Assembly: GCA_964396785.1 (NCBI GenBank)
Contig: CAYNFU010000001.1
Location: forward strand, 943 to 64,942
Source: an uncultured Gammaproteobacteria bacterium
GTDB lineage: Bacteria; Patescibacteriota; Microgenomatia; UBA8517
DNA length: 64,000 nucleotides
Reading direction: 5' to 3'
The translations under genes were made by a program, and so were the position numbers. Below, piece after piece: positions 3,696-33,528 of the stretch. The notes beneath the pieces are model-generated. The model was not told the origin of the DNA and searched no databases. It saw only the letters and a list, made by a program, of their open reading frames with translations. Each line of letters opens with the position of its first letter. The first letter of the stretch is position 1.

Positions 3696-5197
3696 TTTAT
3701 GGGTTTATGTAAATCTGCTATTAAATAAGTATTTGTTTTCTCAACTACTTCAAACCTTGCAATAACGTCTAGAGTATCTGGGTCATTTAGGCTAACAGTA
3801 ACGTAATAATCCGCCCCTTTTTGAATTATTTCATCCACCGATGAATCAATTACCGGCCATCCCCTTCTTTTTGTCTGGTAAAGAAATGCAGTATCCCCAT
3901 TGTAGGGTGCAATTACTATCGCATCCTTGGGAGTCAATCTATCAACGGCTGCCCCTGCCTCCATAATTTCCGGGTGGTTAACTTTATAAAACTCTCTAAC
4001 TTCGGAGGCTCCTGTTGTAAACATAATGAGTATCGAGAATATTGCAACAGATCTGGTAGCTACGAGCGGAAAGTCTCGGGAATTCCACAAATAAATTAGC
4101 CCCTCTGCCAAGGTTAAAGAAATTGCCGGAATAGCAATCGCCTGATAGTAATCGTGCCTTACGTTGGCTGTGGCAAAGACGACAACATAAATGAGCATCC
4201 CTAGTAAAAATGCATGTGTAAATAGGTCTTTCTTGGGTTTAAGAAGTCCAAAGACAAATATTATAATTCCCCAGAATCCCAAAATAAGTTTTGTTAGTCT
4301 CTCCCCAAAAATCCAGCGAAAAAAAGCGGGTTTTAAGCGGATTCCGTCACCATTGAACATCCAAGACCATCCGGGGATGCCTGCTGGAAATTTACTAATC
4401 CAGGCCCGCCAGACAAAGAAAGGAACCAAAATTATATCTACAAAAATAAGGAGTTTAATTAAGAGTTTGGGATTTTGGAAAATTTTCTTAAAAGAATATT
4501 TCTTTGATATTAAATAAATTAAAGGAACTGTATAAAAAATAATAAAGGGCTTAATTAAAAGTCCAAGAGCGATGGAAACCCCTGATAGATATAAAAAGTG
4601 TGCTTTATCTTTGTCGATAAAAAGAATAAAAAGCCAAATTCCCAACAGGCCAAAAAATATTGCCGTAGGTTCGGGCAGTATTACTCTGGTGAAATAAATG
4701 TTAAAAGGCAAAAAGAGGAAAAAAAATGAAGCTAAAACCCCACCCCACTTATTCATAAATCTTGCTCCCAGAAAGTAGAGAATAAACCCTGAACCTAAAG
4801 TAAAAATAATCGAAACTAGCCTCCCCCATACTTCAAAGGACACAACGCCAATATTTTTGGCTAAAACTGCGTGTATTGCGTTATAGAGAGGGAACTCAAC
4901 ATATCGATAGCCTTCTGGGTTTAAAATTCGAGACTGGGTTGAGGATAAATCGTAGTAACGTGGATAAAGTATATTAACACCGTTTTCCACGTAAAGCCTG
5001 GCAACGGCCGCTGTGTCAGCTTGCCTAAAAGAATGCCAATCTGCAATCGGATTATCTATTTTATATAACCTGACTATAAAACCACCAACAAGTATTAATG
5101 CTAACAAATAGTACTCAATACGCTTAACTGAAATAACTCGCGCAACTAATTTATTCAATATATTTCTCATTTCGTACCAGTCCCACCAAAACACCAA
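3692..5197 (-). CDS. Polytopic membrane protein, putative GT-C-fold (ArnT/PMT-like) glycosyltransferase. The start codon is uncertain because the ORF-track start overlaps the upstream gene.
   Basis: 501 aa. The first approx. 400 aa contain more than 10 predicted TM segments, and the first extracytoplasmic loop is WHSFRQADTAAVARLY. The approx. 120 aa C-terminal domain is soluble. This architecture resembles the GT39/GT83 families. Confidence 0.5.
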   Translation of the reverse strand: MVFWWDWYEMRNILNKLVARVISVKRIEYYLLALILVGGFIVRLYKIDNPIADWHSFRQADTAAVARLYVENGVNILYPRYYDLSSTQSRILNPEGYRYVEFPLYNAIHAVLAKNIGVVSFEVWGRLVSIIFTLGSGFILYFLGARFMNKWGGVLASFFFLFLPFNIYFTRVILPEPTAIFFGLLGIWLFILFIDKDKAHFLYLSGVSIALGLLIKPFIIFYTVPLIYLISKKYSFKKIFQNPKLLIKLLIFVDIILVPFFVWRAWISKFPAGIPGWSWMFNGDGIRLKPAFFRWIFGERLTKLILGFWGIIIFVFGLLKPKKDLFTHAFLLGMLIYVVVFATANVRHDYYQAIAIPAISLTLAEGLIYLWNSRDFPLVATRSVAIFSILIMFTTGASEVREFYKVNHPEIMEAGAAVDRLTPKDAIVIAPYNGDTAFLYQTKRRGWPVIDSSVDEIIQKGADYYVTVSLNDPDTLDVIARFEVVEKTNTYLIADLHKPIK

Positions 5198-6506
5198 TTA
5201 ATAACCAGAAGATTATAGCGAATTTTGACGCTTCAAAAACGTCAATAAAAACTGCATTAATTAATACACCAATGCTCCCTCCCAAAAGACCTGCAACAAT
5301 TGGCCTTTGAATTTCTGGTAGCTTTTCCAAGTTAGACTTCACATTTGCTAAAAACAACGATCCAATCCGAAGGAAAATTAAACAAAATGCTGCAAATCCC
5401 AAAATTCCTGTCTCTCCCAATGCCCTTAAATAATCGTTATCTGTGGCAAGTGTAATTGAAGAATAACCAGTACCAAGTAGTGGATTTTTTGCCAATGACC
5501 TTACCGCCCTCGGCCATTCTACATTTATCCTGATTGAAGAAGATCTATCTTCTATGACGGGTGGAGGTGCTGGTGTAGGAGTCACAAAATCTGTCCTTCT
5601 TTGTGGCACTTCCTCTTGTGCGTATACTGTCCATGACGCATCCCCCGTTCTTTTTTTAACCTCGTCAAAAATTCTTAAATATCTGGCCCTTAAGTCTGGG
5701 GAGAATGAGAAAAATATCAAACTAATGATAGTTACAACGAGAACCTCCTTATACTTTCTAAGGATTAGTAGTGCAACACTAACTCCCACCAAATATGAAA
5801 CGATAGAAATTCTTGATACTGAGGCGAGTAGTAACCAAAGGCCAGAAAAGATTGCCCCCGCAATTAATATTTTCCATAATTTCTGTTTGAGGGTATAAAA
5901 GAGAGCTATAAAAATTGGTAAAACGAAAACCAAAAAAGTGGCTAGATCATAGTGCCCTGCGAACGTGGAATTTATGTGACTTCCCGGTAGCCAGCGAAGG
6001 GCAATTCCTTTTGCATACTCTACGTTTTGTGTGACTATTACTGGCCAATAAAGGAAACGCTGCCCCAGTGCATAAACGAAGACAATAAATAATGTAAGTA
6101 AAAGAACCTTGATATAAAAACTCAAATTCTCTCTATTTCGTATTGCGAGAACTCCCAAGAAAAACCCTGAAAAATATTCAATTCTCCTTAAGAAGTGTAG
6201 AAGTCCAATCTCTGGCTCTACCGACTTTGTTATTAAAACTCCCGACAGCAAAGATAGAAGCCCAACTAACGAATAGATTAAAATAGATTTTTCGATTTTT
6301 AAAGAAAATATCCGAAAAAGTTTTGGAAGTAAATATATCCCGCAAATTCCAAAAACCGTCGCCATCAAAAAATCCTCCAATCTTACAGAAACTTGTATTC
6401 CGGGAATCCTAATAAAAGGAAACTTGGGATACAAAATTATTACCATAATAACTGCGGCGGTTAAGTATTTGAAAATGTTATCCGGTGACTTTAAAAGAGT
6501 TCGCAT
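5151..6506 (-). CDS. O-antigen ligase / polymerase family membrane protein (Wzy_C domain)
   Basis: 451 aa with about 10 TM helices. A large loop contains LGTGYSSITLATDNDYLRALGETGILGF, which matches the Wzy_C H/N-x-Y-L-x-x-L-x-E-x-G-x-x-G signature. A Pro-rich linker (PTPAPPPVIEDRSSS) is inserted upstream of the loop. Confidence 0.65.
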   Translation of the reverse strand: MRTLLKSPDNIFKYLTAAVIMVIILYPKFPFIRIPGIQVSVRLEDFLMATVFGICGIYLLPKLFRIFSLKIEKSILIYSLVGLLSLLSGVLITKSVEPEIGLLHFLRRIEYFSGFFLGVLAIRNRENLSFYIKVLLLTLFIVFVYALGQRFLYWPVIVTQNVEYAKGIALRWLPGSHINSTFAGHYDLATFLVFVLPIFIALFYTLKQKLWKILIAGAIFSGLWLLLASVSRISIVSYLVGVSVALLILRKYKEVLVVTIISLIFFSFSPDLRARYLRIFDEVKKRTGDASWTVYAQEEVPQRRTDFVTPTPAPPPVIEDRSSSIRINVEWPRAVRSLAKNPLLGTGYSSITLATDNDYLRALGETGILGFAAFCLIFLRIGSLFLANVKSNLEKLPEIQRPIVAGLLGGSIGVLINAVFIDVFEASKFAIIFWLLIGVLVGLVRNEKYIE

Positions 6507-6511
6507 AATTT

Positions 6512-7057
6512 TTATTTAAGCTCCTTTTTTATATCGATTGCCGCTTGGTAAAGATTCTTTGAAATAAGGAGAGTTAAGCCCAAAGTTAAAAACCCAATTA
6601 ATAGCCTTATTCCAAGGTTGCTCGGTACATATCTTACAATCACTTTTTGTCTCCAATCTTTTTCATCTATTTTTATTGCATCTTGAGCAAGTTTTGGTTC
6701 AAAACCGTTCACAAATATAGACTCTCTAAAAGGGTGTACTATCTCTTCGAGAAAAGTGCTTCTGGCTTGGTCGCGTATGAGAGTCTGCGCTTCTTCTGGC
6801 GGATAATTGAGCCGATAGGTGGGAAGGGGAACTTCAAAGAAGTTTGATTTATTAAACTCTTCCTGATAGTGGGCTAAAACCTCATTTCGCCCATAATCCG
6901 TATAATATCCTCTCCTTAACGGGGTTTCCACGTCCGCCGGTTCATTTGAAACGTACGCATCGTCTAGTTGTTCGGGAAATTCTGGTGAGGGCAAGTATAA
7001 ATAGAGAAGGAAACCTAGGCTGAGTAATAAAAATGCGATCTTTAATGCTACTTTCAT
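6512..7057 (-). CDS. Hypothetical bitopic membrane protein (TM at both ends, acidic extracytoplasmic middle domain)
   Basis: 181 aa ORF with an N-terminal hydrophobic helix (IAFLLLSLGFLLYLYL) and a C-terminal helix (LLIGFLTLGLTLLI). No family was recognised. It is co-directional and tightly packed in the operon. Confidence 0.5.
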   Translation of the reverse strand: MKVALKIAFLLLSLGFLLYLYLPSPEFPEQLDDAYVSNEPADVETPLRRGYYTDYGRNEVLAHYQEEFNKSNFFEVPLPTYRLNYPPEEAQTLIRDQARSTFLEEIVHPFRESIFVNGFEPKLAQDAIKIDEKDWRQKVIVRYVPSNLGIRLLIGFLTLGLTLLISKNLYQAAIDIKKELK

Positions 7058-7066
7058 TTCAAAGAG

Positions 7067-7669
7067 TTACTGGAAAAGCCTTGCCCGGCCCAGGCGATAA
7101 TGAAGATCCTTATGTTTTCTCTCTCCGATAACTTTTGCAGGAACTCCACCGACAATTTCGAAGTCTTGAACACTTTTTGTAACCACTGCTCCGGCTGCTA
7201 CAACCGCTCCTTTACCAATCTTCACACTGGGTAAAATAATTACTCTGGGTCCTATAAACACGTAGTCGCCTATTTCTACAGGAGCTTCAATTGGTGAAAA
7301 GTCGTCCTTCTCAAGGTCGTGCTCAGAGTTATATATCATTACTTCTGAGGCAATATCAACGTGTTTACCTATTATAAGGGGAGCTCTGCCATCCAGGAAA
7401 ACATGGTCTCCGATAATTGTATCTTCTCCAATCTTGATGTTTCGAGGCTGAAAAAATCTAGCCCACATATGAATTACACTATTTCTGCCAATTTGAACTC
7501 CTGCAAGCATATAAAAGAGGGACCTTAGCGAATGAAATGGGATATGGCCTACCCAACGAAGCAACATAAGTTCAAAATCTAGCCAGTAGTTATATAAGCG
7601 GTTTTTTATCTTGGGAAAGGCTTCGAAAAGCGTCAATTCCTTTCCCATTCTGTCCGTAAATAAGGCCAT
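7067..7669 (-). CDS. Hexapeptide-repeat (LbH) O-acetyltransferase, WcaF/colanic-acid acetyltransferase-like
   Basis: 200 aa with tandem [LIV]-G-x-x-x-x repeats: IGEDTIIGDHVFLDGRAPLIIGKHVDIASEVMIYNSEHD ... IGDYVFIGPRVIILPSVKIGKGAVVAAGAVVTKSV. Confidence 0.8.
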   Translation of the reverse strand: MALFTDRMGKELTLFEAFPKIKNRLYNYWLDFELMLLRWVGHIPFHSLRSLFYMLAGVQIGRNSVIHMWARFFQPRNIKIGEDTIIGDHVFLDGRAPLIIGKHVDIASEVMIYNSEHDLEKDDFSPIEAPVEIGDYVFIGPRVIILPSVKIGKGAVVAAGAVVTKSVQDFEIVGGVPAKVIGERKHKDLHYRLGRARLFQ

Positions 7670-7672
7670 ATT

Positions 7673-8803
7673 CTACTTTTGCACTCCTTCTAATACGCTT
7701 AGGGTCTTTCGGGCTGTTTTCTCCCAAGAAAAGCCTTTCACACGAGCTAAACCCTTCTTCACAAGATTATTATACTGCCTTTCTGAGGCGGAAAGCACTT
7801 TTTTAATGCCAGCTGCAATACTCTGAGTGCTATAAGGATCTACCAAAATCCCTGCATCACCAACAACTTCGGGTAAAGCACCCTTATTTGAGGCTACTAC
7901 GGGCACGCCGCAGGCAAATGCGTGCAGTATATCCATTCCGAACCCTTCCCAAAAGGATGGGAGTGTGAAAACCCTAGCTCCCCTTATAAGGGCGGGTTTT
8001 TCTTCTTCAGGGACAAAATCTGTAAAAATAATGTCTTTAGTTAGACCTAAGGCCTGAACTTTTTCAAATATTGACCCATAAAGCCACCCCTTTTTGCCGG
8101 CAACTACAAGAGAATAATTTGGATATTCCTCCTTTAACTGCCTCCAAGCAGTCAGTAGCCCCTCAACGTTCTTACTTGGCTTTAGGGTACTGAGGTATAA
8201 CACATAGTCCTTCACTATAGAGTATTTTTCCTTAATACGTCGCACATCGTCATTAGTGATTGACTGATTAAAGCGTGCACTATCGTATCCATGGTATACA
8301 ACGTGTATTTTTTTTGAGGCAAATGGATAGTGTCGTACAATGTCATTTCTTGTACTAGTTGATACAGCTATGATAGCTTTTGATATAAATATCGAATAAG
8401 CACTCCAATACTTCAGCTGCCAAAAGTCGTATTTTTTAAATTGTTCCGAAAATTCAAGGTAACCCAAGTCATGAATCGTACAAACTACCGGAACTGCCGA
8501 AAAAGGGGGAACATAGTGACTTGGAGAGAAAAAAACATCTGGTCTGGGCCGTCCTATAAAGAGTTCGGGAGTTAACCTCCTTATTATCCACGCCCCGCGA
8601 CCCGAAATTACCTTATAAAAGAAGTTTTTTGTGGCTTTTGGAAGAAATTCTTTAGGTTTTTCTCTTAAAAAGACAATAATCTTGTGTTTACCTTTCCACT
8701 CATCCTCTAGTTTTCGTATGGCGGTAAGAACCTCGAGTGAATATTGGTTAACTCCGACTCGACTTTCTATATTTGCTTCGTTACCGTCTATTCCAATTAT
8801 CAT
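7673..8803 (-). CDS. Glycosyltransferase, GT4 / group 1 family
   Basis: 376 aa. N-terminal MIIGIDGNEANIESRVGVNQY. C-terminal LPSFWEGFGMDILHAFACGVPVVAS carries the EX7E motif. Confidence 0.8.
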   Translation of the reverse strand: MIIGIDGNEANIESRVGVNQYSLEVLTAIRKLEDEWKGKHKIIVFLREKPKEFLPKATKNFFYKVISGRGAWIIRRLTPELFIGRPRPDVFFSPSHYVPPFSAVPVVCTIHDLGYLEFSEQFKKYDFWQLKYWSAYSIFISKAIIAVSTSTRNDIVRHYPFASKKIHVVYHGYDSARFNQSITNDDVRRIKEKYSIVKDYVLYLSTLKPSKNVEGLLTAWRQLKEEYPNYSLVVAGKKGWLYGSIFEKVQALGLTKDIIFTDFVPEEEKPALIRGARVFTLPSFWEGFGMDILHAFACGVPVVASNKGALPEVVGDAGILVDPYSTQSIAAGIKKVLSASERQYNNLVKKGLARVKGFSWEKTARKTLSVLEGVQK

Positions 8804-9888
8804 TTTAATTTGCTCCCTGCCCTTTGGTAAACTTTAATAGTACTTTCGGAAACCCGCGTCCAAGAAAATTCTTTAACTTTCTCTTTCCCTTTTTTTACGA
8901 GATCTTCCCTATCCTTTATGGCACTTTTCACGCCCTCCGAGATAGAATCAACATCCTCCGGGTCAACCAAAACCGCTGCACCATGACCCAACTCCTGCAT
9001 TGTTCCTACTTTTGAAGTGACAACTGGAGTTTCACAAGCAAAAGCCTCGAGGATTGGAAATCCGAAGCCTTCATATAGTGACGGATACAAAAGTGCTTTA
9101 GATCCTGAATACAAGGCAGGAAGGTCGGAAGAGGCAACATGTCCTAGAATTTTCACACCGCGCGTAGGCTCAATTTTCATGAATGGATGGCCCACAATAA
9201 TAAGCTTCATGTCCATTCCCGGCCTTACTTTTTCGAATGCTCTTACTATCCTTTGGGTATTCTTTCTGGGATTGACCCCGATTGACAAAAGATATGAGCC
9301 GCTTATTTGATACTTTCTTTTTACCTTTTCAATTTCGACTTGTGTGGTACGTTTAAAGGCCTGATCCGGAGCTTCTGGGATAACCACTATTCTATCCGTC
9401 TCTACATTAAGCCTCATAATATCATTTTTTGTAGTTTCTGAAGGAACTATAATCACATCTACTTCATTAATAACCCATTTGAGGCGAGCTAGATGTGTTT
9501 TAACTATCTTTGGGTGTGTAAGCTTGGGAAAAAGTAAAGGAAACAAATCGTGTACCGTGGTTACTTTGAAGGCCTTGGAGGGTGGCTGGGTCCAATCGGA
9601 AGAATGAAAAACATCGACCTCCCCGACCAATCTTTCGACCGGCAGGATATGGAGCCTGTTCCAGACAATTGCGGCAAGAGTGGGTGGAAATGGAAAGACC
9701 TTGTCTGTAAAATTACCTTTTAGTGAATTAAAGAAAGCCTTCAGCGTCCCCATTTGCCTAAGGGATCCACCAAATAAGATATAGTCATTTTTGTCGTCAA
9801 ACCGTAATAAGTTCTCACAAAGAAGCTTCGTATAAACAGATACACCGGTGCCGTAGACAACTTGGGAAACGTCAATTGCAATCTTCAT
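8800..9888 (-). CDS. Glycosyltransferase, GT4 / group 1 family
   Basis: 362 aa. C-terminal YPSLYEGFGFPILEAFACETPVVTS is an EX7E motif. There are 4-bp overlaps on both sides. Confidence 0.8.
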   Translation of the reverse strand: MKIAIDVSQVVYGTGVSVYTKLLCENLLRFDDKNDYILFGGSLRQMGTLKAFFNSLKGNFTDKVFPFPPTLAAIVWNRLHILPVERLVGEVDVFHSSDWTQPPSKAFKVTTVHDLFPLLFPKLTHPKIVKTHLARLKWVINEVDVIIVPSETTKNDIMRLNVETDRIVVIPEAPDQAFKRTTQVEIEKVKRKYQISGSYLLSIGVNPRKNTQRIVRAFEKVRPGMDMKLIIVGHPFMKIEPTRGVKILGHVASSDLPALYSGSKALLYPSLYEGFGFPILEAFACETPVVTSKVGTMQELGHGAAVLVDPEDVDSISEGVKSAIKDREDLVKKGKEKVKEFSWTRVSESTIKVYQRAGSKLK

Positions 9889-11294
9889 GGCCGTTTCAGG
9901 TATCTTATAATGCCAACTCCGGGAAAATCAAAGGAAGAAGCTTCAATAAAGCCTTCCTCACCTAAACTTGTCGCTACAATCCGCCCAGGGTCGTGGAGCT
10001 CCCACAAATACTCAAAATAATAAACCCCTTTTGAGTTTAGAGTTTTATCGGTAACTTTTTTCCTTGTGGGAATGGGATTTGCGGCTATTGAATCTGTTAA
10101 GCCTTCGGCATTCATGCTTTGGTTACTATACCATTGGTAGGGTGCAAATGGCTCTGTAAAATTAAAAACAACCATCTCATCACTTGCTACCCTTGATTCT
10201 ACGAAGTGAACTGCCTCTCTCCACTGCTCTCTTTTCTGATAAGGGTCGGTTATATAAATGAGCCAGGAGAAAATATTTCCAAGAATAATTATTCCCAAAA
10301 GAAGTAATTTATTCTTACCTTTATGTTTTTCAATCCCCCAAGCGGCTAAAAGAAAAAAGGCTGGCAAAACATACAAAAATCGGAAATAAATAAATGCCGG
10401 AAAAAATAAAGAGGTGAAAAAACCAAGAAAAATCGGGACAATAAGGTAAAGCCGTACGGGAATGACTTCCCTTCTTTTCCGCCATGCCGCAATAAAAGCG
10501 AGAGCGTAGGGGATAGAGAAAATACCGATAAGAGAATAATACAAAGTCTTATCGGTGATTGATATCCTGCCAAAGACAAACTTTGCCCAAACTAACCCCA
10601 GCTGTTTGGGGGTCGCCCCACCCGCCACTTTTGCCCATGCCGGAAGAGTCTCTAAAAGCCATCTTCCACCTTGGGACTGGATTAAAAAGGTTGGAATCCA
10701 CAAAATTCCTAAAATCAGAAGGGGTAGGAAAGATATAGCCATCTTTTTCCACCAAATTTTTCCTTTCTTTGAAATAAATCCTATTAGCCAAAAAACTGGG
10801 AGAAGAAATACGGGCATATAATCGGTAAATACCAAAGCAACTATTGTTAGGGAAAAGGCCTTCCAGTTCTCTTTAAGGAAGAGGTAGAACGCAAGCGCGG
10901 CTAAAAAGGCCGCCATAGAATACATTCTGGCTTCTTGAGAGTAATAAATATGAAACGGAGATGTGGCTATAAGAATTGCCGCAAGAGCCCCCAAGCGCTT
11001 GCTAAATATGTTTCCTATCTTATATACCATGTAGATGGTTCCAATACCAAAAATGACTGACAAGCTCCTAAGGGCAGCTTCCGAATATCCAAATAGACCA
11101 CTCCAGAGCTTAAGGGTTAAGTAATATAAAGGGGGGTGATTATCGTGCGTAGGAAACTCTGACAAAATCTGCCAAAATGTCTGATTTTTTACTACAAGTG
11201 CCCCTATGCTCTCGTCCAGCCAAAGAGACTGGTTAATTACAACTAGCCTTAAGGCTAGTCCCACAATAAGTATCAAAAGAATGTACTTTTTCAT
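9885..11294 (-). CDS. GT-C-fold membrane glycosyltransferase, GT39 (PMT/ArnT)-like
   Basis: 469 aa with about 11 TM segments. The first loop has WLDESIGA (DE motif) followed by HPPLYY, as in PMT_2 family proteins. The C-terminal soluble domain (EQWREAVHFVESRV...) is homologous to the C-termini of the tandem paralogs at 46.5-64 kb. Confidence 0.7.
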   Translation of the reverse strand: MKKYILLILIVGLALRLVVINQSLWLDESIGALVVKNQTFWQILSEFPTHDNHPPLYYLTLKLWSGLFGYSEAALRSLSVIFGIGTIYMVYKIGNIFSKRLGALAAILIATSPFHIYYSQEARMYSMAAFLAALAFYLFLKENWKAFSLTIVALVFTDYMPVFLLPVFWLIGFISKKGKIWWKKMAISFLPLLILGILWIPTFLIQSQGGRWLLETLPAWAKVAGGATPKQLGLVWAKFVFGRISITDKTLYYSLIGIFSIPYALAFIAAWRKRREVIPVRLYLIVPIFLGFFTSLFFPAFIYFRFLYVLPAFFLLAAWGIEKHKGKNKLLLLGIIILGNIFSWLIYITDPYQKREQWREAVHFVESRVASDEMVVFNFTEPFAPYQWYSNQSMNAEGLTDSIAANPIPTRKKVTDKTLNSKGVYYFEYLWELHDPGRIVATSLGEEGFIEASSFDFPGVGIIRYLKRP

Positions 11295-13120
11295 AGTGCG
11301 GGTACGGCAACCCTAGGATCATGGGTTAGCACCCAGCTTAAGTGTAAAACAAAAAGGAGAGCCAGGAAACTCAATATGGTCAATTTGGACTTTAAGGAAG
11401 ATTTTCTCACAAGCCTATAAATAATTAGCCCCAGGACAATGTGGAGAGCAGGATAGACAATAAAGGTTAAATAGGGGCTTCCCCATACCTTATCAAAATT
11501 AAATCTAAGAAGTGATGAGGCTACATCATTTGGGAAATCCTGGTTAACAAACCTTACTTTGAAAGGTTCTTGGAATTTTAATCCAACGAGCCTTAGAGCA
11601 TCCCAAGCAAAACCAAGATACCTACTTCCGGAAATCTCGGTGTATCTAAGACGGACAACGAGTGCATCGAGCCCAAATGTCAAAGGAAGAATCAGGGACA
11701 TAAGACCTGGTCTTAAAAAATAGAATCCGGCAAAAACTCCAAAAACCAAAAGTGACTGAACTATCTCAAGATTTTGAAATACTGGTCCAAAGTAGACTAT
11801 CCACCCGAATTGCTCGGTCGACCTTAACAAAAGGCCAAAGCCGGCTATTAAAAAAAGTGTTGCTAAAATAGAGTTTAATACTTTCTTTTTAAGGATAAAT
11901 AAAACCGACAACGCCCCCCAGACCAACAGGTAATAGGGGAAATATCTGCCACCCGAGCTAGGCGGGTTCGTTCCAAGTCTTCTATCCAAAAAGTTAGAGG
12001 TATCGGCGACAAAATAATCGGAAAAGGCGTCCTGGGAGTTATAGAAAATTTCATCTCCTAATTTTTGATTCATCCTTTTTTGAGGAGTTAAAATCCACTC
12101 AAAATCTCCACCCTTGAGCCTAACAACATCTGGATTTTGAGAATAATAAGCCATATAACTTTGGGCAAAATCGCTCATCGTTACAAACATCAGGCCCTGA
12201 ATCTTACTAAGGGTAAGAAGTTGGTTCCCATATTCCTCAATAAATGTAGCCCCCTCAATTCCGGTCTCAAGGCCGACTGTGGCCTGTCCTATCTCATTTC
12301 GACAGTCAAGATAATTCCTTACAAGTGTGTCAAAATAATCGGTATTTTTTCCTAAACTCGTGTAATCATTTGCTTGCATTGAATAATTGGAATATGCCGG
12401 CCCTTCCCCATAGGCCAAAGTTAAGTCTCTCTGTGCCCACTGAATAACAACTAAATCCATTTGACTCTCTTTAGAACCCGCCGGAGTTAAAACATTAGCC
12501 TTGCTCGGATAATAGGGAATCCCCCACCACTGACCCCAAACTCCATAGTTGTCGGTAGTTTTTTGGTCGGAAACTATCATGGCGGATACTACTCCATACT
12601 TTTTACTCAAATAGTTCAGGGAGTAGGAATCAATCCACCAGGCTCCCACGGACTTTGGATAATAGCCGAAAGTGTCTTTAAACCGTCTAAAGGTAGTATC
12701 AAGAAGCTTTCTTCGCTCGCTTTCTTGATATCCGGACAAAAACACTGCCCTGGGACTCGCCCAGGGGGTAAATGCAGGATAAATAACCCTCGAATCCCTC
12801 GCAAGATCCGTACTTACCTCAAGAAGTAGCCCAAATTCTTGGTTTGGGCTAAATCCGCGGACCTCAGAAATAACTTCGGAGTCAATGAGCGCGTCGTACT
12901 GCAAAAGCCATGTGGCGGGATACGAATACTTACTTGACAGACTATATTGGTTGAGAAGCGGGTTCACAGACTTGTCGCTCCAAAGCTCCCTTCCGCGTAC
13001 GGGATTTACCAAAGTCAGGTAGCGTCTTTGACAAGAAATATTTTGCTCCTGAGCAAATAAATTTCCGGGAAATACCAGAAAAAGTAAGGCAGTCAAAAGA
13101 AGCGTCCAAAAAAACCTCAT
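11291..13120 (-). CDS. Hypothetical secreted, membrane-anchored protein. It has an N-terminal signal peptide, an approx. 380 aa Trp/Tyr-rich extracytoplasmic domain and a C-terminal multi-TM anchor.
   Basis: 609 aa. MRFFWTLLLTALLFLVFPGNLFAQ is signal-peptide-like. The middle domain contains WWIDSYSLNYL...YGVWGQWWGIPYYPSKANV and many aromatic residues; it is possibly carbohydrate-binding or carbohydrate-modifying. About 5 TM helices lie in the last approx. 200 aa. No family was assigned from memory. Confidence 0.55.
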   Translation of the reverse strand: MRFFWTLLLTALLFLVFPGNLFAQEQNISCQRRYLTLVNPVRGRELWSDKSVNPLLNQYSLSSKYSYPATWLLQYDALIDSEVISEVRGFSPNQEFGLLLEVSTDLARDSRVIYPAFTPWASPRAVFLSGYQESERRKLLDTTFRRFKDTFGYYPKSVGAWWIDSYSLNYLSKKYGVVSAMIVSDQKTTDNYGVWGQWWGIPYYPSKANVLTPAGSKESQMDLVVIQWAQRDLTLAYGEGPAYSNYSMQANDYTSLGKNTDYFDTLVRNYLDCRNEIGQATVGLETGIEGATFIEEYGNQLLTLSKIQGLMFVTMSDFAQSYMAYYSQNPDVVRLKGGDFEWILTPQKRMNQKLGDEIFYNSQDAFSDYFVADTSNFLDRRLGTNPPSSGGRYFPYYLLVWGALSVLFILKKKVLNSILATLFLIAGFGLLLRSTEQFGWIVYFGPVFQNLEIVQSLLVFGVFAGFYFLRPGLMSLILPLTFGLDALVVRLRYTEISGSRYLGFAWDALRLVGLKFQEPFKVRFVNQDFPNDVASSLLRFNFDKVWGSPYLTFIVYPALHIVLGLIIYRLVRKSSLKSKLTILSFLALLFVLHLSWVLTHDPRVAVPAL

Positions 13121-13938
13121 TTTGTCCTCTTGCCCGTAAGAATCATCTCTAGTATCCCAATCAAAATACCAAAGTCATATACCAGCTTGAATACCAAAAA
13201 TTGAGGTAACATGTTTATAAATGCCTTAAATGTGCCGACCATGAAAGATACTGCTAAAGACGCACGGACTATGCCAATCGTCTGTCCAAAGGCCCCAAGC
13301 TTATATCCTCTTTTGCCCACCCACCTGGCGTGATTAAATACTTCTTTTAAGGAAGAAGGATTTTTGTGATAAAAGATGACTCCTGGGGTTGAGACGGCCA
13401 TGTATCCTAATTTGTCATAGAGGCTGTAGTCGTCGGTGTAGCCACCGGGGGTAAAACCCTCAACCTTATCAAATTCTTTTTTTAGAATTGCCCTAAATAC
13501 TTTTTGTTTATCGGGGTAATTTCTGGGATGGCGTTTCCTTTCTTCCCAATTTTGATTAATATTCCAGCACCTTGCCCAAACATTCTCCCAGTTACTTACG
13601 TATTCGTATTTTGAAAAAGTTCCCTTTGCGGATCCCGAAAGAATTGGTTTAACTAGGTTTTTTAGAAAGTTTTTGTCAAAAGTCATGTCAGCGTCGACAA
13701 AAACCAAAATTTCGCCGCTTGCACGCTTTACCCCCAAATTCCTCGCCGCTCCAGCCCCAAGGTGGTTCTGGTGAAGCGTAGTAACTCGTGAGCTTATCTT
13801 TTCAGGGGTTTCGTCGGTAGAGCCGTCATCGACAACAATAATCTCGAAATCGTGATAAGTTTGTTTAGCGAGAGACGCTATACATTCTCCAATTGCGTTA
13901 GACTCATTGTAAGTCGGAATAATAACCGAGATTTTCAT
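13117..13938 (-). CDS. Glycosyltransferase family 2 (GT-A fold)
   Basis: 273 aa. MKISVIIPTYNESNAIGECIASLAKQTY...EIIVVDDGSTDET...GAGAARNLGVKRASGEILVFVDADM is a canonical GT2 N-domain with a DxD motif. Confidence 0.8.
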   Translation of the reverse strand: MKISVIIPTYNESNAIGECIASLAKQTYHDFEIIVVDDGSTDETPEKISSRVTTLHQNHLGAGAARNLGVKRASGEILVFVDADMTFDKNFLKNLVKPILSGSAKGTFSKYEYVSNWENVWARCWNINQNWEERKRHPRNYPDKQKVFRAILKKEFDKVEGFTPGGYTDDYSLYDKLGYMAVSTPGVIFYHKNPSSLKEVFNHARWVGKRGYKLGAFGQTIGIVRASLAVSFMVGTFKAFINMLPQFLVFKLVYDFGILIGILEMILTGKRTK

Positions 13939-14957
13939 TTGATTAGACTTTTGAATAAATCTTCATATTGTTTTGCGATTTTATCCCAATTAAACTTCTC
14001 GGCCTGCTTCCTTGGTTTATCTCCCCAATCCTTGTCTAAAGCTATCTTCAAGGCTGAAGCGTACTCTTTTGAATCTGTCGGGTCAACAAAGCTACCTGCA
14101 TCTCCTACTATTTCTTTCCTTATGTCGTCGTCGTTAACTACCACCGGCAAATTTGTTGCCATGGCCTCAACTATTACCATTTCGAAGGATCTGTACCAAG
14201 GAGAGGCTAGCGTAAGGACGTCCGCTCCCCGATAAACCTGGGGCATCTTATTAAAGTCAAAAGAAGTAATTAGAAACCTCCCTTTAAGAATGCTTTTTGC
14301 CAATCTCTCAAGCTCCAACCTAAGTGGTCCCTTGCCTACAATCACTAAACTTCCTTTTGGCACCTGTGACATTGCCCTTATGACAAGATCCATCCTTTTA
14401 TCTCTATCCAAAGCTCCCACCGCTATAACTACCGGTCTTTCTAATTTGAAATCCATTTTTCCCCCATCGGGCCTAAATACATTGGTATCTACCCCGTTTG
14501 GTATATATTCGATTCGCTTCAAGAGCGGGTTTACTCCCTTTGCCCAATTCATGAGTTTTGTGGAAAGAGCTACAAAGGTATTTGGAAAGCACCAAAGATT
14601 ATTCCTATCGTCCCACCCCTTCCCTGACTGGCCGGAAATAACTATCTTTCCTCCATAAAGCCAGGTAATAATTCTTACGAATGCCGGTTGCCACCCTCCG
14701 TCAATTGGAATAACAACATCATATTTCTCCCTCCACAGCCTACCCAGATTCTTTAGAGTGAATATTGTTACCTGAATTCCAAATGGATCAAGATAAGTAC
14801 GCCAGACAATTGGCCAGCGTACTTTGTATGGCTTATTCGCCGAAATTATATCTACACCAATCCCCTTTTCTTTAAGTCTTTTTGAGAGTTCGTCTACAAA
14901 TCTCTCAGCCCCTCTTTCAACGACCCCGTAGGAAACATTTAGAAAAGCTATTTTCAT
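13935..14957 (-). CDS. Glycosyltransferase, GT4 / group 1 family
   Basis: 340 aa. N-terminal MKIAFLNVSYGVVERGAERFV. C-terminal LTLASPWYRSFEMVIVEAMATNLPVVVND carries the EX7E motif. Confidence 0.75.
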   Translation of the reverse strand: MKIAFLNVSYGVVERGAERFVDELSKRLKEKGIGVDIISANKPYKVRWPIVWRTYLDPFGIQVTIFTLKNLGRLWREKYDVVIPIDGGWQPAFVRIITWLYGGKIVISGQSGKGWDDRNNLWCFPNTFVALSTKLMNWAKGVNPLLKRIEYIPNGVDTNVFRPDGGKMDFKLERPVVIAVGALDRDKRMDLVIRAMSQVPKGSLVIVGKGPLRLELERLAKSILKGRFLITSFDFNKMPQVYRGADVLTLASPWYRSFEMVIVEAMATNLPVVVNDDDIRKEIVGDAGSFVDPTDSKEYASALKIALDKDWGDKPRKQAEKFNWDKIAKQYEDLFKSLIK

Positions 14958-16380: not shown

Positions 16381-18267
16381 ATGTGTGGAATAGCCGGAAA
16401 AATATATTTGGACTCAAGATCCGTTAGCCACGAGCATCTTAGGAAAATGTCCGAAAAAATCGTACATCGTGGACCGGACGACGATGGTGTATATATAAGC
16501 CGCGACAAAAAGGTAGGGTTAATTAACCGTCGTCTTGCAATCATTGACTTATCAAAAGCCGGACATCAGCCGATGCTATACAAGGGACGCTACGCAATTA
16601 CCTTTAACGGAGAGGTCTATAATTTCCAGGAAGAAAGACGCAAGTTAGAAAAAGAAGGATACCAATTTAAATCAAACACCGACACTGAAGTGATTTTAGC
16701 CCTCTATGACAAATACGGAGTGTCCTTTTTAAAAAGACTTAGGGGGATGTTTGCTTTTGCAATCTATGATGACAGGGAAAAAACAATTTTTCTTGCCAGA
16801 GATAGAATCGGCAAAAAACCTCTTAAGTATTTCATTAACGGAGGCACTTTTATTTTCGCCTCAGAGCTAAAAGCAATTCTTACCCAATCCGAAGTCAAAA
16901 GGACGATTGACTACAATGCAATTCAGTCTTACTTAGTCTACGGCTATACCCCTTCACCCCTTACTGGTTTTGAAGGTATAAAGAAGCTTCAACCCGGCCA
17001 CTACATAATAATGAACCTGAGGCGAAAAACATTTGAAATCAAAAGATACTGGGAACCGGTTTTCAGAAATAAGCTTCATTTAACCGAGAATGAATGGTGC
17101 GACAGAATTCTTAATACTTTAGAGCAGTCCACCCGACTCCGGATGATCTCGGATGTACCAATTGGGGCTTTTGTGTCGGGTGGGGTTGATTCAAGTGGCG
17201 TCATTTATGCAATGAGTAAATTCTCGGATAAACCCATAAATACTTTCACAATTACCTTTGACGATAAAAAGTGGAGTGAAGCCAAATATGCTCAAAATCT
17301 AGTCAAAAAATTCGGGACGAATCACCACGAGCTTCTGGCTAAACCCGAGAATGTCGAAATCCTTCCTGAACTCGCATACCAATATGAGGAGCCATTTGCG
17401 GATGCAAGCAATGTTGTAACTTATATGGTGAGTCGTCTTGCAAGAAAGTATGTCACTGTCATATTAAACGGAGACGGAGGAGATGAGAATTTTGCGGGTT
17501 ACCCAAACAGATACTTTAGACTTGGCCGTGACGTGAACTTTTACAATTGGATAAACACAATAAGGCCCTTGGCAGTTGCCGGGTTAAAGGCATTAGCTAG
17601 AGTTTCAAAAAGTACTCTTGTTACCAGGCCAACCAATTTTTTTGAAAAATCAAAGCTTCCTCTATATCAGCGCTTCGCCTCCTACAACCAAATATTTTCT
17701 TTTGACGAAATCGTAAGTATGTCAACGGGTGCCTTGGTCGATGTAAACAACACACAAAATCCATACACAATTGTAGAAAACTGTTTCAAAATGTTTAAAG
17801 GCAAAGATCTAAAGGACGCGGGGCTCAAATTTGACCTTTTATACTGGCTACCGGATGACCTTTTGGCCAAAGTTGACATCGCTTCCATGGCCAGCTCACT
17901 TGAAGCCCGCTCTCCTCTACTGGACCATCATATGATAGAGCTTGCAGGTAAAATTCCATTTAGATTAAAGGTAAAAAATGGAGAGAGTAAATATATCCTC
18001 AAAAAGGCTCTTGAGACAGTCATCCCTAGAGAAAATTTATACAGGCCCAAGATGGGCTTCGGAGTTCCCCTCCATCTTTGGTTCTCTGGAAAATTAAATA
18101 GCTATACTAAAGGAGTTCTACTTTCCAAAAAGGCAAAGGTTAAAGGGTTAATTAGACAAGATGCAATCAAAAATATGCTTGAAGGTCATTCGGAAACCAA
18201 CGATTTCGGCCCACGCCTCTGGGCACTACTTTCACTGGAGCTCTGGTTAAAGAGCTTCTTCAACTAA
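16381..18267 (+). CDS. asnB: Asparagine synthetase (glutamine-hydrolysing) family amidotransferase, AsnB-like
   Basis: 628 aa. It starts MCGIAG (Cys2 is the class-II GATase nucleophile). The central VSGGVDSS is the PP-loop ATP pyrophosphatase motif. It is one of only two plus-strand genes in the window. Confidence 0.9.
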   Translation: MCGIAGKIYLDSRSVSHEHLRKMSEKIVHRGPDDDGVYISRDKKVGLINRRLAIIDLSKAGHQPMLYKGRYAITFNGEVYNFQEERRKLEKEGYQFKSNTDTEVILALYDKYGVSFLKRLRGMFAFAIYDDREKTIFLARDRIGKKPLKYFINGGTFIFASELKAILTQSEVKRTIDYNAIQSYLVYGYTPSPLTGFEGIKKLQPGHYIIMNLRRKTFEIKRYWEPVFRNKLHLTENEWCDRILNTLEQSTRLRMISDVPIGAFVSGGVDSSGVIYAMSKFSDKPINTFTITFDDKKWSEAKYAQNLVKKFGTNHHELLAKPENVEILPELAYQYEEPFADASNVVTYMVSRLARKYVTVILNGDGGDENFAGYPNRYFRLGRDVNFYNWINTIRPLAVAGLKALARVSKSTLVTRPTNFFEKSKLPLYQRFASYNQIFSFDEIVSMSTGALVDVNNTQNPYTIVENCFKMFKGKDLKDAGLKFDLLYWLPDDLLAKVDIASMASSLEARSPLLDHHMIELAGKIPFRLKVKNGESKYILKKALETVIPRENLYRPKMGFGVPLHLWFSGKLNSYTKGVLLSKKAKVKGLIRQDAIKNMLEGHSETNDFGPRLWALLSLELWLKSFFN

Positions 18268-30993: not shown

Positions 30994-31948
30994 CCTCAGT
31001 TTTCAAAACCGCATCTAGTCTTTCGTATTTAATTTCCGTTTTTTCGTCAAAAATAATCACTCTACTCTCTTCATGAAAGATAGGCCAATGAGTTGAATCA
31101 GACAAAGGGTCAATTTCAACAAAGTAGGCTACCTTTATTTGCTCTGCCAGCTCCTGATTATCCAAAAGTGCCCCACTTATTAACTCTCTTGGAAAGAGGA
31201 AATATCTCAAAACCGGCTGATTGCCTATTGCAGGCCATTTTTCTCCTTGAGGAGGGTGAATTACTTTTACATCTTCCGGTGAGTTTTCTTTCAAAAGAAC
31301 AATATATTTATAATGAACACCCATCCTACTTTCGAAACCCCCTTTTACTTCTCCCAGTAATCGAGTCCAGCTGACAAATGGAGAAAGAGAGAGAATTATT
31401 AATCCAGAAAGGCCGGTCAAAGCCAATAAAAATGAATATCCTTCCCTTCTTGCTAGCCCACTGGCCCCTTGACTTTTTTGTCTCAAAAGCTTGAAGGATC
31501 GATTGTAAACCAGCATAAATAAAAATACGAAAAGCTCAAGAGCCGTAACAAAGGACATGAGCTCCAATTGAGGAACAGTTAGTCCAAAGTGCCCATAAAG
31601 AAAATTGGGGTAATTCCTCTCCTCTAGAGCTAGAAGAAATCTTGCTAATGTTAAAAAGGTCACACTGGAAATAGAAAGAAAAATCAAAGTTTTTCTTTGG
31701 AGCACTGATATTTTTTTATCAATAAATCTCTTGAACCAAAGAACTATTATCAAAAGCACGATAGAAGAAATAAAAAAAGGAAAATAGTATAAAAGTGTAG
31801 AAAGACCAATTATTCGGAAGTTTTGAAAGTCTTTATTTACAACAAAATAAAGACGAAAGACACTTAAAAGAGGGGACAACAAAAAGGTGAGCCAAAGTAG
31901 CACCAAAAGGACATGACTATAAATAATACGTAGTATTTTTTCTTTCAT
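30965..31948 (-). CDS. Membrane protein with an approx. 130 aa C-terminal soluble domain, unknown family
   Basis: 327 aa with about 6 TM helices, followed by a hydrophilic domain (ESRMGVHYKYIVLLKENSPEDVKVIHPPQGEKWPAIGNQPV...). Confidence 0.5.
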   Translation of the reverse strand: MKEKILRIIYSHVLLVLLWLTFLLSPLLSVFRLYFVVNKDFQNFRIIGLSTLLYYFPFFISSIVLLIIVLWFKRFIDKKISVLQRKTLIFLSISSVTFLTLARFLLALEERNYPNFLYGHFGLTVPQLELMSFVTALELFVFLFMLVYNRSFKLLRQKSQGASGLARREGYSFLLALTGLSGLIILSLSPFVSWTRLLGEVKGGFESRMGVHYKYIVLLKENSPEDVKVIHPPQGEKWPAIGNQPVLRYFLFPRELISGALLDNQELAEQIKVAYFVEIDPLSDSTHWPIFHEESRVIIFDEKTEIKYERLDAVLKTEDGSVYQVYF

Positions 31949-33528
31949 ATTTCAAGGCTACGAATCTCCCAATAATATCTAAACCCTTCGTTTAAAAAGG
32001 GGGGATTTTTCAAGGTTTGAATTGGTCTGGACCCAAAATTATTCCTAAAGGCGTTCGGATCGATCCGAGAAACATGATAGGCTTTCGAATCTAAAAGAGT
32101 ATAGTTTGAGTTTGAAAGACTTTCTAAATTTATAACCGACTCCAAAGATGACCTGGTAAATAAATCTCCTTCAGAAGGGGGTGGTAGTTTAAGTCTCTCT
32201 ACCTCGGGTTTACCTCCATGGAAATAATTAAGATGCATTGGAATCTCATAAACTACTTCCCAGTTGTCAATTGTTTCCTTGGCGTTTAAATAAACGGTGC
32301 CCTCCTTAACTTTTGCTATTGCGTCGACCTGGTCTTTTTCAAACTGAATAAATGTTGCAAACCAGTTTCTGTAATTTAAAGTTCTTGCGATATTTAAGGG
32401 TGCTTCCACGAAAAAAAGGTTACAAAGGGTAAAAATTGCTAGAAACTGAAAAGCAACTTTCTTCCAACCTGAAAAAACACTCATTTTTTCAATCTCATTC
32501 ATCACTCTTGAAATTAGTATCGTTACCAGGATAGAAAATGCATAAATCGATGGAAGAAGATACCTATCTAGTACATATCTCCATGGAAATAGTATTACTG
32601 TAAATGAGACAAAAACCAAAAGCCAATAAACAAAATGGGATCCTGCTATCCCCTGCCGGAACTTTTTAATAATCAAGGTAAAAGGAGCTGCAATAAGAAA
32701 AATTTCAAAGAAGGGACTTAAGGAATTTGAAAGAAGTTTTAAGAAATTTAGGCCATTTTGAAGAATAAACAATAGGTTAAGCCTGTAATTACTTGAGTAG
32801 TTAGGTCCTGTCTGAGCTCCACCGAGGAACATTTTTACTAAAATAAATATTGCCCCCGATACAATTAACATGGTAATTAAAGCTTTTTTATGAAGTACTT
32901 TTGGAAATAGTATTCCCAAAATAAACACCGCAGGCAAGATCGCAATTGATGCTTCCTTAAGCAAAAGCAAAAAAATTAGAGTCAGACTCAAAATGATAAT
33001 TGCAGGTCCTCTCAACTTTTTAGATATATGCTCAAGATTCAAAAAAAGTAAGGAAAATATTCCCAAAAATAGCACCATATATGGCTCGATAGGGCCTAGC
33101 CTTATCATATTTTCGCTAAAAGAATAATTGGTGACAAAAAGGGCGGCACCCAAGGTAACGGCAATAGCATGGGATCTTGCCGAGAGCGCCGACAAGACAA
33201 AAAGTATTACCAGGGCAAGTCCAAATCCGTAAATCCTGAGTTCGTGTTGAAATTGTGCGTCAACTCTTGGAGGCTGATATAAAATACCTTGAATGAGCCA
33301 GTAACCAGTTCTTGATAAACCAACGTCTGGAAGTACTTCGATAATCTGAGACTTAAAACTAGTACATTTACGCTCGACTAAACATTCTCTTACGTAAATC
33401 CCATACTTAATTGATTGACCGTCGTCAATAAGAGAGAAGTTTTTGAAAATTTGGGGGCTCAAAACATACCTTGCATAAAAAAGATAAGCTAACGCTACAA
33501 AAATCAAGAAAAATATTTTTTTACCCAT
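31945..33528 (-). CDS. Polytopic membrane protein, unknown family. Paralog of the protein at 35013..36623.
   Basis: 527 aa. It shares NFSLIDDGQ, ATNYSFSENMIRLGPIEPY and a C-terminal EIPMHLNYFHGGKPEVERLKLPP region with the 35013..36623 protein (NFSLVDDGQ / ATNYSLSENIIRLGTNEPY / EVPIHLKFFYGIEPNLEILKETIP). Confidence 0.6.
   Translation of the reverse strand: MGKKIFFLIFVALAYLFYARYVLSPQIFKNFSLIDDGQSIKYGIYVRECLVERKCTSFKSQIIEVLPDVGLSRTGYWLIQGILYQPPRVDAQFQHELRIYGFGLALVILFVLSALSARSHAIAVTLGAALFVTNYSFSENMIRLGPIEPYMVLFLGIFSLLFLNLEHISKKLRGPAIIILSLTLIFLLLLKEASIAILPAVFILGILFPKVLHKKALITMLIVSGAIFILVKMFLGGAQTGPNYSSNYRLNLLFILQNGLNFLKLLSNSLSPFFEIFLIAAPFTLIIKKFRQGIAGSHFVYWLLVFVSFTVILFPWRYVLDRYLLPSIYAFSILVTILISRVMNEIEKMSVFSGWKKVAFQFLAIFTLCNLFFVEAPLNIARTLNYRNWFATFIQFEKDQVDAIAKVKEGTVYLNAKETIDNWEVVYEIPMHLNYFHGGKPEVERLKLPPPSEGDLFTRSSLESVINLESLSNSNYTLLDSKAYHVSRIDPNAFRNNFGSRPIQTLKNPPFLNEGFRYYWEIRSLEI

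Follow-up and report, generated by a model that had tools for sequence, protein, structure and literature searches.

Two WbpS-like amidotransferases in a 64-kb glycan locus of Candidatus Woesebacteria probably act in cell-surface glycan synthesis

AsnB-family amidotransferases encoded in glycan loci are already well known. WbpS, WbqG, and PGN_1234 are placed in the eps_aminotran_1 family, and deletion of PGN_1234 abolishes glucuronamide, a uronamide (PMC7468200). In Helicobacter pullorum, a wbpS knockout installs the N-acetylhexosaminuronic acid HexNAcA instead of its amide, HexNAcAN (PMC6025236). Here, two AsnB-family genes are described in a 64,000-nucleotide stretch of bacterial DNA (contig CAYNFU010000001.1), referred to in full as the window. 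Both probably encode WbpS-like, glutamine-dependent ATP/PP-loop amidotransferases for cell-surface glycan synthesis and not for housekeeping asparagine (Asn) synthesis. Because the two copies are WbpS-like and each lies in its own conserved glycan module, they are probably modifiers of surface sugars and not makers of an amino acid. Domain integrity, family placement, motifs, and conserved synteny are the direct observations behind this reading.

The organism belongs to Candidatus Woesebacteria (Microgenomates, Candidate Phyla Radiation [CPR]), comes from groundwater, and has a tiny genome. CPR bacteria such as the Woesebacteria are uncultivated, possess genomes of ~1 Mb, and depend on other cells. 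The window sequence equals positions 620-64619 of a 73.6-kb Rifle-aquifer scaffold, is also found in GCA_001792925.1, and has a GC content of 38.5%. By gene calls and Pfam, the whole window is a single glycan locus that lies almost entirely on the minus strand. The two genes are as follows, with lengths in amino acids (aa).

16381..18267, plus strand: copy 1 (asn1), WbpS-like glutamine-dependent amidotransferase of the "N/I" subtype, 628 aa, alone on the plus strand within a Wzx/Wzy-type block of minus-strand genes

58257..60086, minus strand: copy 2 (asn2), WbpS-like glutamine-dependent amidotransferase of the "S/R" subtype (as WbpS itself), 609 aa

An earlier note, made from the letters of this DNA alone, had reported two AsnB-family genes, and the coordinates, strands, lengths, and MCGIAG starts all agree with it. 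Pfam places GATase_7/GATase_6 and Asn_synthase domains in both proteins, with E values of 1e-89 for copy 1 and 9e-87 for copy 2. The catalytic signatures are intact, as the note had said, and include Cys2, the glutaminase site, and the SGG[VL]DSS PP-loop (FVSGGVDSS and FLSGGLDSS). The note was also right that the copies are only distantly similar, at 35% identity over the full length. Though the window contains several other open reading frames of ~600 aa, tblastn found no third AsnB-like copy in it.

To map residues, Escherichia coli AsnB (L019; L numbers denote comparison loci) was aligned with the orthologues, 119 of copy 1 and 116 of copy 2. Both copies have the PP-loop and, at the glutaminase site, C1, R49, N74, E76, and D98. 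R49, N74, E76, and D98 are invariant across the ~235 full-length orthologues, and C1 and G236 are nearly so, the exceptions at C1 being a few orthologues whose N-termini are gapped in the alignment. D351, E352, Y357, K429, and K449 are kept in both copies and are invariant or nearly invariant in the orthologues. The two copies share with AsnB proper (E. coli AsnB and human ASNS) the fold and the chemistry, seen in the Cys1 N-terminal nucleophile (Ntn) glutaminase, the PP-loop, and D351/E352/K449.

The copies differ from AsnB proper in other respects. On NF006949, the model for AsnB proper, they score 274 (copy 1) and 303 (copy 2) against a cutoff of 499 and both fail, whereas E. coli AsnB scores 1050. 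E348 is replaced by Asp and R387 by Lys in every sequence of both orthogroups. The register of D384 is ambiguous owing to a 7-residue insertion ahead of the R387 position. The TTIR segment of E. coli AsnB is replaced by F/L-ADAS in both copies, the C-terminus is longer, and BLASTP aligns E. coli AsnB with either copy only in part, at 141-166 bits. In human ASNS, E364 corresponds to E. coli E348, and the E364A and E364Q variants are inactive; human D400/R403 correspond to E. coli D384/R387 (PMC6748925). Loss of the aspartate-binding D and R, together with an extra loop, marks homologues that do not make Asn (PMC8554201).

Three reference proteins, all found by tblastn of plasmid records, were used for comparison: Pseudomonas aeruginosa WbpS (L101), a Vibrio XrtA/PEP-CTERM amidotransferase named by the Prokaryotic Genome Annotation Pipeline (PGAP; L100), and the long-form AsnB of Bacillus cereus (L102). 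The asnB homologue of L101 is identified as WbpS because it holds the WbpS position in the gene order of an O6-type O-antigen locus. This order is ihfB, wzz, a UDP-GlcNAc 6-dehydrogenase, a C4-epimerase, a flippase, a GT4 glycosyltransferase, the asnB homologue, a second GT4, a short-chain dehydrogenase/reductase, a third GT4, and a large "polysaccharide biosynthesis protein" that, judging from gene order, we take to be WbpM-like. The L101 record (CP075839.1) was deposited as a P. aeruginosa plasmid. Besides rpsA and ihfB, it contains a complete O6-type cluster that is split by an IS1595-family element, and it looks like chromosomal sequence or a misassembly. The pairwise comparisons are given below.

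Copy 1 and WbpS (L101:8001-9884): 36.6% identity, 389 bits (BLASTP, 99% coverage)

Copy 1 and the XrtA enzyme (L100): 36.6% identity, 390 bits

Copy 2 and WbpS (L101:8001-9884): 35.8% identity, 359 bits (BLASTP, 99% coverage)

Copy 2 and the XrtA enzyme (L100): 37.3% identity, 375 bits

WbpS and the XrtA enzyme: 35.5% identity, 373 bits

Both copies are as close to WbpS as WbpS is to the PGAP-certified XrtA/PEP-CTERM amidotransferase. The family models agree. The best NCBIfam model of both copies is TIGR03108 (eps_aminotran_1), with 551 bits for copy 1 and 476 bits for copy 2. Across TIGR03108, TIGR01536, TIGR03104, and NF006949, WbpS scores 553, 458, 357, and 275 and copy 1 scores 551, 467, 424, and 274, which is practically the same profile. 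The Bacillus protein scores higher on TIGR01536 (550) than on TIGR03108 (477), the reverse of the order in WbpS and both copies.

With the XrtA/PEP-CTERM amidotransferase, that is TIGR03108 proper, the copies share the top NCBIfam model, 37% identity to L100, and the same motifs. The function of that family is itself known only by inference. Membership in an XrtA/PEP-CTERM system was considered and rejected, as the scores lie below 816.9, the trusted cutoff of TIGR03108, and the Pfam-annotated gene calls contain no exosortase, PEP-CTERM, or XrtA-system genes (glycosyltransferase, deacetylase, FemAB). An analogy that the earlier note had drawn to PseA and acetamidino groups also falls away. PseA-type enzymes are PP-loop proteins without an N-terminal Cys glutaminase domain. 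Both copies have this Cys1 domain, and no N-acetyl-sugar amidotransferase family is among their NCBIfam matches at E<=0.01.

A short motif follows the same division. Copy 2 reads S-G-D-G-G-D-E, as do WbpS and the XrtA enzyme, copy 1 differs in the first residue (N-G-D-G-G-D-E), and the AsnB proteins of E. coli and B. cereus read S-G-E-G-S-D-E. The N/I subtype of copy 1 reads L-N-GDGGDE-N-FAGY with KVD-I-ASMA, and the S/R subtype of copy 2 reads SGDGGDELF with K-T-D-R. The G-D-G-G-D-E signature was derived empirically in this analysis. A genome scan seeded with GDGGDE[LN]F, which returned few Microgenomates, cannot test the motif because it was seeded by it, so plasmid homologues not selected by motif were used instead. 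In this sample, all six long-form homologues among annotated glycan genes have G-D-[GA]-G-D-E and K-V-D-R. They come from Halorussus, Haematospirillum, Sulfitobacter (with TviB), and Sphingomonas (with a UDP-glucose/GDP-mannose dehydrogenase), together with P. aeruginosa WbpS and the Vibrio XrtA enzyme. The three Bacillales copies without glycan neighbours all have G-E-G-[SA]-D-E, with K-A-D-K in the two where the second motif was matched. Among 48 motif-selected loci from many phyla with at least 8 kb of flank, GT2 or GT4 genes lie within 10 kb in 36, and a nucleoside diphosphate (NDP)-sugar dehydrogenase is present in 8.

Phylogeny was assessed with a neighbour-joining tree (107 sequences, 624 columns, 100 bootstraps). 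Support for monophyly is 100 for the copy 1 orthogroup and 100 for that of copy 2, and the two are sisters in 0 of 100 bootstraps. All G-D-G-G-D-E sequences are split from E. coli and B. cereus AsnB (85). Neither copy branches within housekeeping AsnB, the placement that the earlier note had set against its own idea of dedicated glycan enzymes.

Copy 2 lies in a module whose other members are listed here.

60728..61684, minus strand: ArnC/GtrB-like GT2 (predicted polyprenyl-phosphate sugar synthase, by sequence match to ArnC/GtrB structures), 318 aa, the upstream partner of copy 2

60132..60731, plus strand: HD/HDIG phosphohydrolase between the GT2 and copy 2 (Pfam HD, NCBIfam HDIG), in this lineage only

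56575..58266, minus strand: GT-C (PMT_2) membrane glycosyltransferase directly downstream of copy 2, ~560 aa (Pfam PMT_2, E 1.4e-19)

54893..56578, minus strand: second GT-C (PMT/PMT_2) of the module, ~560 aa (Pfam PMT_2 and PMT)

The GT2 matches the ArnC structures 9BHC/8VXH over its full length at 152 bits and the GtrB structure 5EKP at 110 bits. Its NCBIfam scores of 169 bits on ArnC (cutoff 529) and 128 bits on PgfS are both below cutoff. Two C-terminal membrane helices were judged by eye from the translation. The ATG of the downstream GT-C, at 58260, overlaps the stop codon of copy 2 as ATGA, as read in the sequence. No solved-structure relative of this GT-C was found by sequence.

Copy 2 orthologues are 46-79% identical in Woesebacteria and Daviesbacteria, and the module was compared in L017, L018, L103, and L104. 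An ArnC-like GT2 lies upstream of copy 2 in all five genomes, at 49-64% identity in the four comparison loci. The orthologous GT-C pair lies downstream in four of the five; in L017, L103, and L104, the first is 44-53% and the second 35-49% identical. The HD gene is absent at that position in L017, L018, L103, and L104, and there the GT2 abuts the amidotransferase. An ArnC-like GT2 was found upstream of only one of 103 other AsnB-like genes examined.

Two side observations concern this module. The only instance outside CPR of an ArnC/GtrB-like GT2 right before an AsnB-like gene is L088 6928-8808 of the Desulfovibrionales, where the GT2 lies 41 nt upstream and a second AsnB-like gene adjoins. 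Such pairs of GT2 and AsnB-like genes may have more than one origin. Instead of the HD gene, L017 has a NUDIX/HAD fusion after its amidotransferase, and both are nucleotide/phospho-sugar hydrolase types. This hints at a variable accessory step in the module.

The copy 2 module resembles the Arn (ArnC/ArnD/ArnT) and Gtr (GtrA/B/V) systems in its ArnC/GtrB-like GT2 and PMT_2-type GT-C enzymes, with the gene for a predicted cytoplasmic sugar modifier between them. The Rhizobium Rgt-type pathway follows a similar logic of polyprenyl-phosphate sugar, modification, flipping, and GT-C transfer. Only this pathway logic is shared with the Arn system, and the modifier in the copy 2 module is an AsnB-family amidotransferase. 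The copy 2 GT2 falls far below the ArnC equivalog cutoff, and by gene calls and Pfam the module has no ArnA, ArnB, or ArnD homologues and lacks a formyltransferase, an aminotransferase, and a deacetylase. The literature searched contained no description of AsnB homologues in CPR or of an AsnB-like enzyme joined with ArnC/ArnT-like enzymes.

Copy 1 lies among the following genes.

5151..14957, minus strand: block of Wzy_C, a 181-aa protein, hexapeptide acetyltransferase, GT4, GT4, PMT_2, a 609-aa protein, GT2, and GT4 (gene calls and Pfam), in the same order in L016 and L105

14954..16312, minus strand: GT-C (PMT_2, weak; Pfam), divergent from copy 1 across a 68-bp intergenic region

18247..19719, minus strand: GT-C (PMT_2), convergent with copy 1, the 3' ends overlapping by 21 nt; the flippase takes this place in L015, L016, and L105

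20488..21327, minus strand: GT2, 279 aa (Pfam Glycos_transf_2), 51-59% identical to the divergent upstream neighbour of the copy 1 orthologues in L015, L016, and L105

21324..22604, minus strand: Wzx-type flippase (Polysacc_synt; Pfam), 49-50% identical to the convergent overlapping neighbour in L015, L016, and L105

Copy 1 orthologues occur in more than 100 Microgenomates clusters and are 60-77% identical. In the window and in its three comparison loci (L015, L016, and L105), the copy 1 gene stands alone on the plus strand amid minus-strand genes and converges on its neighbour. The 3' overlap with the convergent gene measures 21, 20, 4, and 17 nt in the window, L015, L016, and L105, respectively, though the partner differs. 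The overlap of 21 nt that the earlier note had pointed out can be read in the sequence: the TAA of copy 1 occupies 18265-18267, and the stop codon of its neighbour is at 18247-18249 (TTA on the plus strand). The conserved overlap may have a regulatory meaning, for instance through convergent transcription. Around copy 1, matches to promoters and terminators stay within the shuffled expectation, and the intergenic region upstream is not conserved among the orthologous loci. Neither the conserved antisense arrangement of copy 1 nor the ArnC-like/amidotransferase/GT-C module of copy 2 was found in the literature searched.

The window also has PMT_2 and methyltransferase genes between copy 1 and the GT2/flippase pair, and the GT2 lies on the other side of copy 1. 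Comparison of window 18247-21327 with L016 9108-13143 indicates a local rearrangement. In L105, a third AsnB-like gene of 600 aa lies at 15842-17644, ~6 kb from the copy 1 orthologue and right after a 340-aa GT2. Its identity to both window copies is 31-34%, and the G-D/E-G-x-D-E pattern does not match it.

Outside the Microgenomates, the closest relatives of copy 1 are in L020 (49%), L021 (47%), and L026, and all are of the N/I motif subtype. Each lies near a dehydrogenase. In L021, the end of a nucleotide-sugar dehydrogenase gene (TIGR03026, 421 bits) coincides with the first base of the amidotransferase gene. L020 has a TviB/WbpO-like dehydrogenase, with 49% identity to WbpO, two genes upstream, and in L026, a dehydrogenase is 402 nt downstream.

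The plus strand of the window carries just two genes, that of copy 1 and the one for the HD-domain protein (60132..60731), in agreement with the count in the earlier note. A third plus-strand open reading frame, 22984..23478, falls within minus-strand genes and was not called as a gene. The window encodes at least 11 PMT_2/PMT-type GT-C membrane glycosyltransferase paralogues, many GT2 and GT4 enzymes, ~10 S-adenosylmethionine (SAM) methyltransferases, a NodU-like carbamoyltransferase, a Wzy_C polymerase, a Wzx-type flippase, an EamA transporter, and a FAD oxidoreductase. Large membrane proteins without a Pfam hit, at 11291..13120, 24967..26790, 31945..33528, 35013..36623, 52429..54108, and 61686..63002, may be further divergent GT-Cs. 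The PMT-type open reading frame at 3692-5197 (501 aa) is intact in the window and appears as two genes of 256 and 222 aa in a closely related strain (L014 2355-4004), which suggests strain-level disruption of one GT-C paralogue. The NodU/CmcH-type carbamoyltransferase at 26783-28558 on the minus strand has Carbam_trans_N/C domains and scores 122 bits on the NodU model; its presence would imply O-carbamoylated sugars. The FAD-dependent oxidoreductase at 45253-46530 on the minus strand passes NCBIfam PRK07233 (418 bits, cutoff 252), a "hypothetical protein" model with an amine-oxidase/phytoene-desaturase fold. Its neighbours are GT2/GT4 genes, and in the other genomes it was not observed close to the amidotransferases.

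With this context, the two copies can be set beside the WbpS group. They share with WbpS, WbqG, PGN_1234, and H. pullorum WbpS the two-domain architecture, a length of ~610-630 aa, the G-D-G-G-D-E motif, K at the R387 position, and a place inside glycan loci. They differ in that identity to WbpS is just 36% and each copy makes up a separate Microgenomates orthogroup. Moreover, an adjacent WbpO/WbpP-type dehydrogenase or epimerase was not found beside them, copy 1 belongs to the distinct N/I subtype, and copy 2 is linked with an ArnC-like GT2 and GT-C enzymes in place of a Wzx/Wzy O-antigen pathway. The earlier note had suggested a likeness to WbpS, and this is borne out by the end-to-end alignment at ~36%, the family score profile, the motif, and the glycan-locus placement. 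Its claim of dedicated glycan enzymes in place of housekeeping AsnB gains from the same profile, motif, and retained placement, and also from the failure on NF006949 and the two acceptor-site changes. Two different amidation steps had been proposed, and this stands in the sense of two non-sister subtypes in two different conserved modules.

The chemistry would follow that of the family. After removal of Met, the N-terminal Cys of the Ntn glutaminase domain would hydrolyse glutamine, and the ammonia would pass to the C-terminal synthetase domain. There, the PP-loop (SGGxDSS) would bind ATP, the carboxylate would be adenylated, and attack by ammonia would give a carboxamide. We infer the identity of the carboxylate, the stage of amidation, and the acceptor from the relatives and neighbours of the two genes. 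Most likely, amidation takes place at the C6 carboxylate of a sugar acid in activated form, such as a UDP-hexuronate, a UDP-HexNAc-uronate, or a lipid-linked form, and the product would be a uronamide, as for WbpS/WbqG/PGN_1234. Copy 1 would act within the Wzx/Wzy-type heteropolysaccharide block. In the copy 2 module, the ArnC/GtrB-like enzyme would load the sugar on polyprenyl phosphate, the sugar would be flipped, and the two GT-C enzymes would pass it to an extracytoplasmic acceptor. Copy 2 would neutralise the carboxylate of the sugar either ahead of its loading on the lipid or right afterwards.

The gene set around copy 2 may represent a new variant. It is conceivable, though held only tentatively, that it forms a previously undescribed envelope-decoration pathway in Woesebacteria and Daviesbacteria, in which amidation of a sugar acid takes place in the cytoplasm, while the sugar is bound to a nucleotide or to polyprenyl phosphate, and the GT-Cs install the uronamide on an extracytoplasmic acceptor. 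If so, charge would be neutralised before flipping, and the module would be a form of the Arn/Rgt scheme in which the modification is an amidation.

Several points weigh against a role in sugar amidation. The first group concerns the supply of sugar acid. Tblastn with WbpO and WbpP found no NDP-sugar 6-dehydrogenase or WbpP-like epimerase in the 64-kb window, and the same search was negative in the Microgenomates loci L001, L007, and L015-L018. The gene calls of L103-L105 list no dehydrogenase. With a CPR NDP-sugar dehydrogenase as query, no named Microgenomates appeared among the best 120 matches. The gene calls of the window show no other obvious carboxylate source and no nonulosonic-acid or pyruvyl-transferase genes. 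However, no nucleotide-sugar precursor genes of any kind are recognisable in the window by gene calls and Pfam/NCBIfam, and the absence of a dehydrogenase is not specific because the locus holds no precursor-synthesis genes at all.

The second group concerns the assignment itself. Both copies pass the generic "asparagine synthase (glutamine-hydrolyzing)" model TIGR01536, at 467 (copy 1) and 460 (copy 2) against a cutoff of 267. Both also fall below the trusted cutoff of TIGR03108, though authentic P. aeruginosa WbpS fails it as well (553 bits), so that cutoff defines the XrtA-linked equivalog and not WbpS function. The 60-77% conservation of copy 1 is unusually high for a variable glycan gene and would also fit a core cell-wall function. 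The correlation between motif and context rests on nine sequences and is confounded with taxonomy, and the tree is a simple neighbour-joining tree. An E. coli Asn auxotroph is complemented by each of the three B. subtilis homologues (PMC8554201). The copies may have some residual activity in Asn formation or peptidoglycan amidation, since D351 and E352 are retained and the Bacillus long forms are promiscuous (PMC8554201).

Against this background, the alternative that stands up best is a role in peptidoglycan, though it is unlikely. One or both copies would amidate a stem-peptide carboxylate (the epsilon-carboxyl of meso-diaminopimelic acid [mDAP], or D-Asp/D-Glu) on the cytoplasmic lipid-linked precursor. 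The AsnB of B. subtilis and Listeria, AsnB1 of Lactiplantibacillus plantarum, and LtsA of Corynebacterium glutamicum amidate stem-peptide carboxylates, and CPR bacteria have a Gram-positive-like wall, which counts for this possibility. So does the conservation of copy 1, which is that of a core envelope gene, and the surrounding genes are all envelope genes. Both copies are long-form proteins with an extra loop before the R387 position and a replaced R387, as in mDAP-amidating AsnB/LtsA enzymes (PMC8554201). However, the loop and the change from R to K do not discriminate because all long forms, including WbpS, share them. The Bacillales long forms examined have G-E-G-[SA]-D-E, K-A-D-K, and a higher score on TIGR01536 than on TIGR03108, in contrast to the WbpS-type G-D-G-G-D-E and the WbpS-like score order of both copies. 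The copies also lack a peptidoglycan gene context: across nine loci, neither orthogroup was seen to have mur/fem-type genes next to it.

It is rather improbable that the copies are genuine, possibly promiscuous Asn synthetases that give a minimal-biosynthesis CPR bacterium its route to Asn, with their position in a glycan locus a matter of history. The passing TIGR01536 scores, the conserved D351, E352, Y357, K429, and K449, the complementation by the B. subtilis long-form homologues (PMC8554201), and the strong conservation of copy 1 would all fit. TIGR01536 is a generic model, however, because authentic WbpS passes it equally (458 bits). The position of E348, equal to the human Glu-364 at which both substitutions inactivate the enzyme (PMC6748925), is Asp in the copies, R387 is Lys, and "TTIR" has become "FADAS". 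Placement in the glycan modules is kept across Woesebacteria and Daviesbacteria, with reading frames that overlap or abut glycosyltransferase genes, and two to three paralogues per tiny genome are hard to explain by Asn supply. Least probable is amidation of a carboxylate other than that of a uronate, on the glycan or on its carrier (for example, in an amino-acid, lactyl, or pyruvyl substituent), or another nitrogen transfer such as the hydroxamate formation of TsnB9, which the missing uronic-acid pathway, the unusual modifiers of the locus (many SAM methyltransferases, the NodU-like carbamoyltransferase, and the FAD oxidoreductase), and the best solved-structure match of copy 1, the hydroxyamidotransferase 7YLZ (180 bits vs 136 for E. 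coli AsnB), a sign of the chemical versatility of the fold, would favour, but genes for such substituents were not recognised in the window, 7YLZ has Glu at the E348 position (SGEAADE), unlike both copies, and the nearest relatives of copy 1 outside the Microgenomates are operon-linked to NDP-sugar 6-dehydrogenases.

If the two copies are WbpS-like glycan amidotransferases, the two "asparagine synthase" annotations of this organism most likely denote sugar-amide-forming enzymes and should not be counted as amino-acid biosynthesis capacity. The contrast of G-D-G-G-D-E with G-E-G-S-D-E may help annotation to tell glycan amidotransferases from Asn synthetases and cell-wall amidotransferases. The ArnC-like/amidotransferase/GT-C module is a candidate for a new lipid-linked sugar decoration route. 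More than 64 kb given to one glycan locus is a very large investment for a ~1-Mb CPR genome. To our knowledge, almost nothing is known of CPR surface chemistry, and the surface is probably where the dependence of these bacteria on other cells plays out. The reading given here predicts that amidated, charge-neutralised sugar acids are displayed on that surface.

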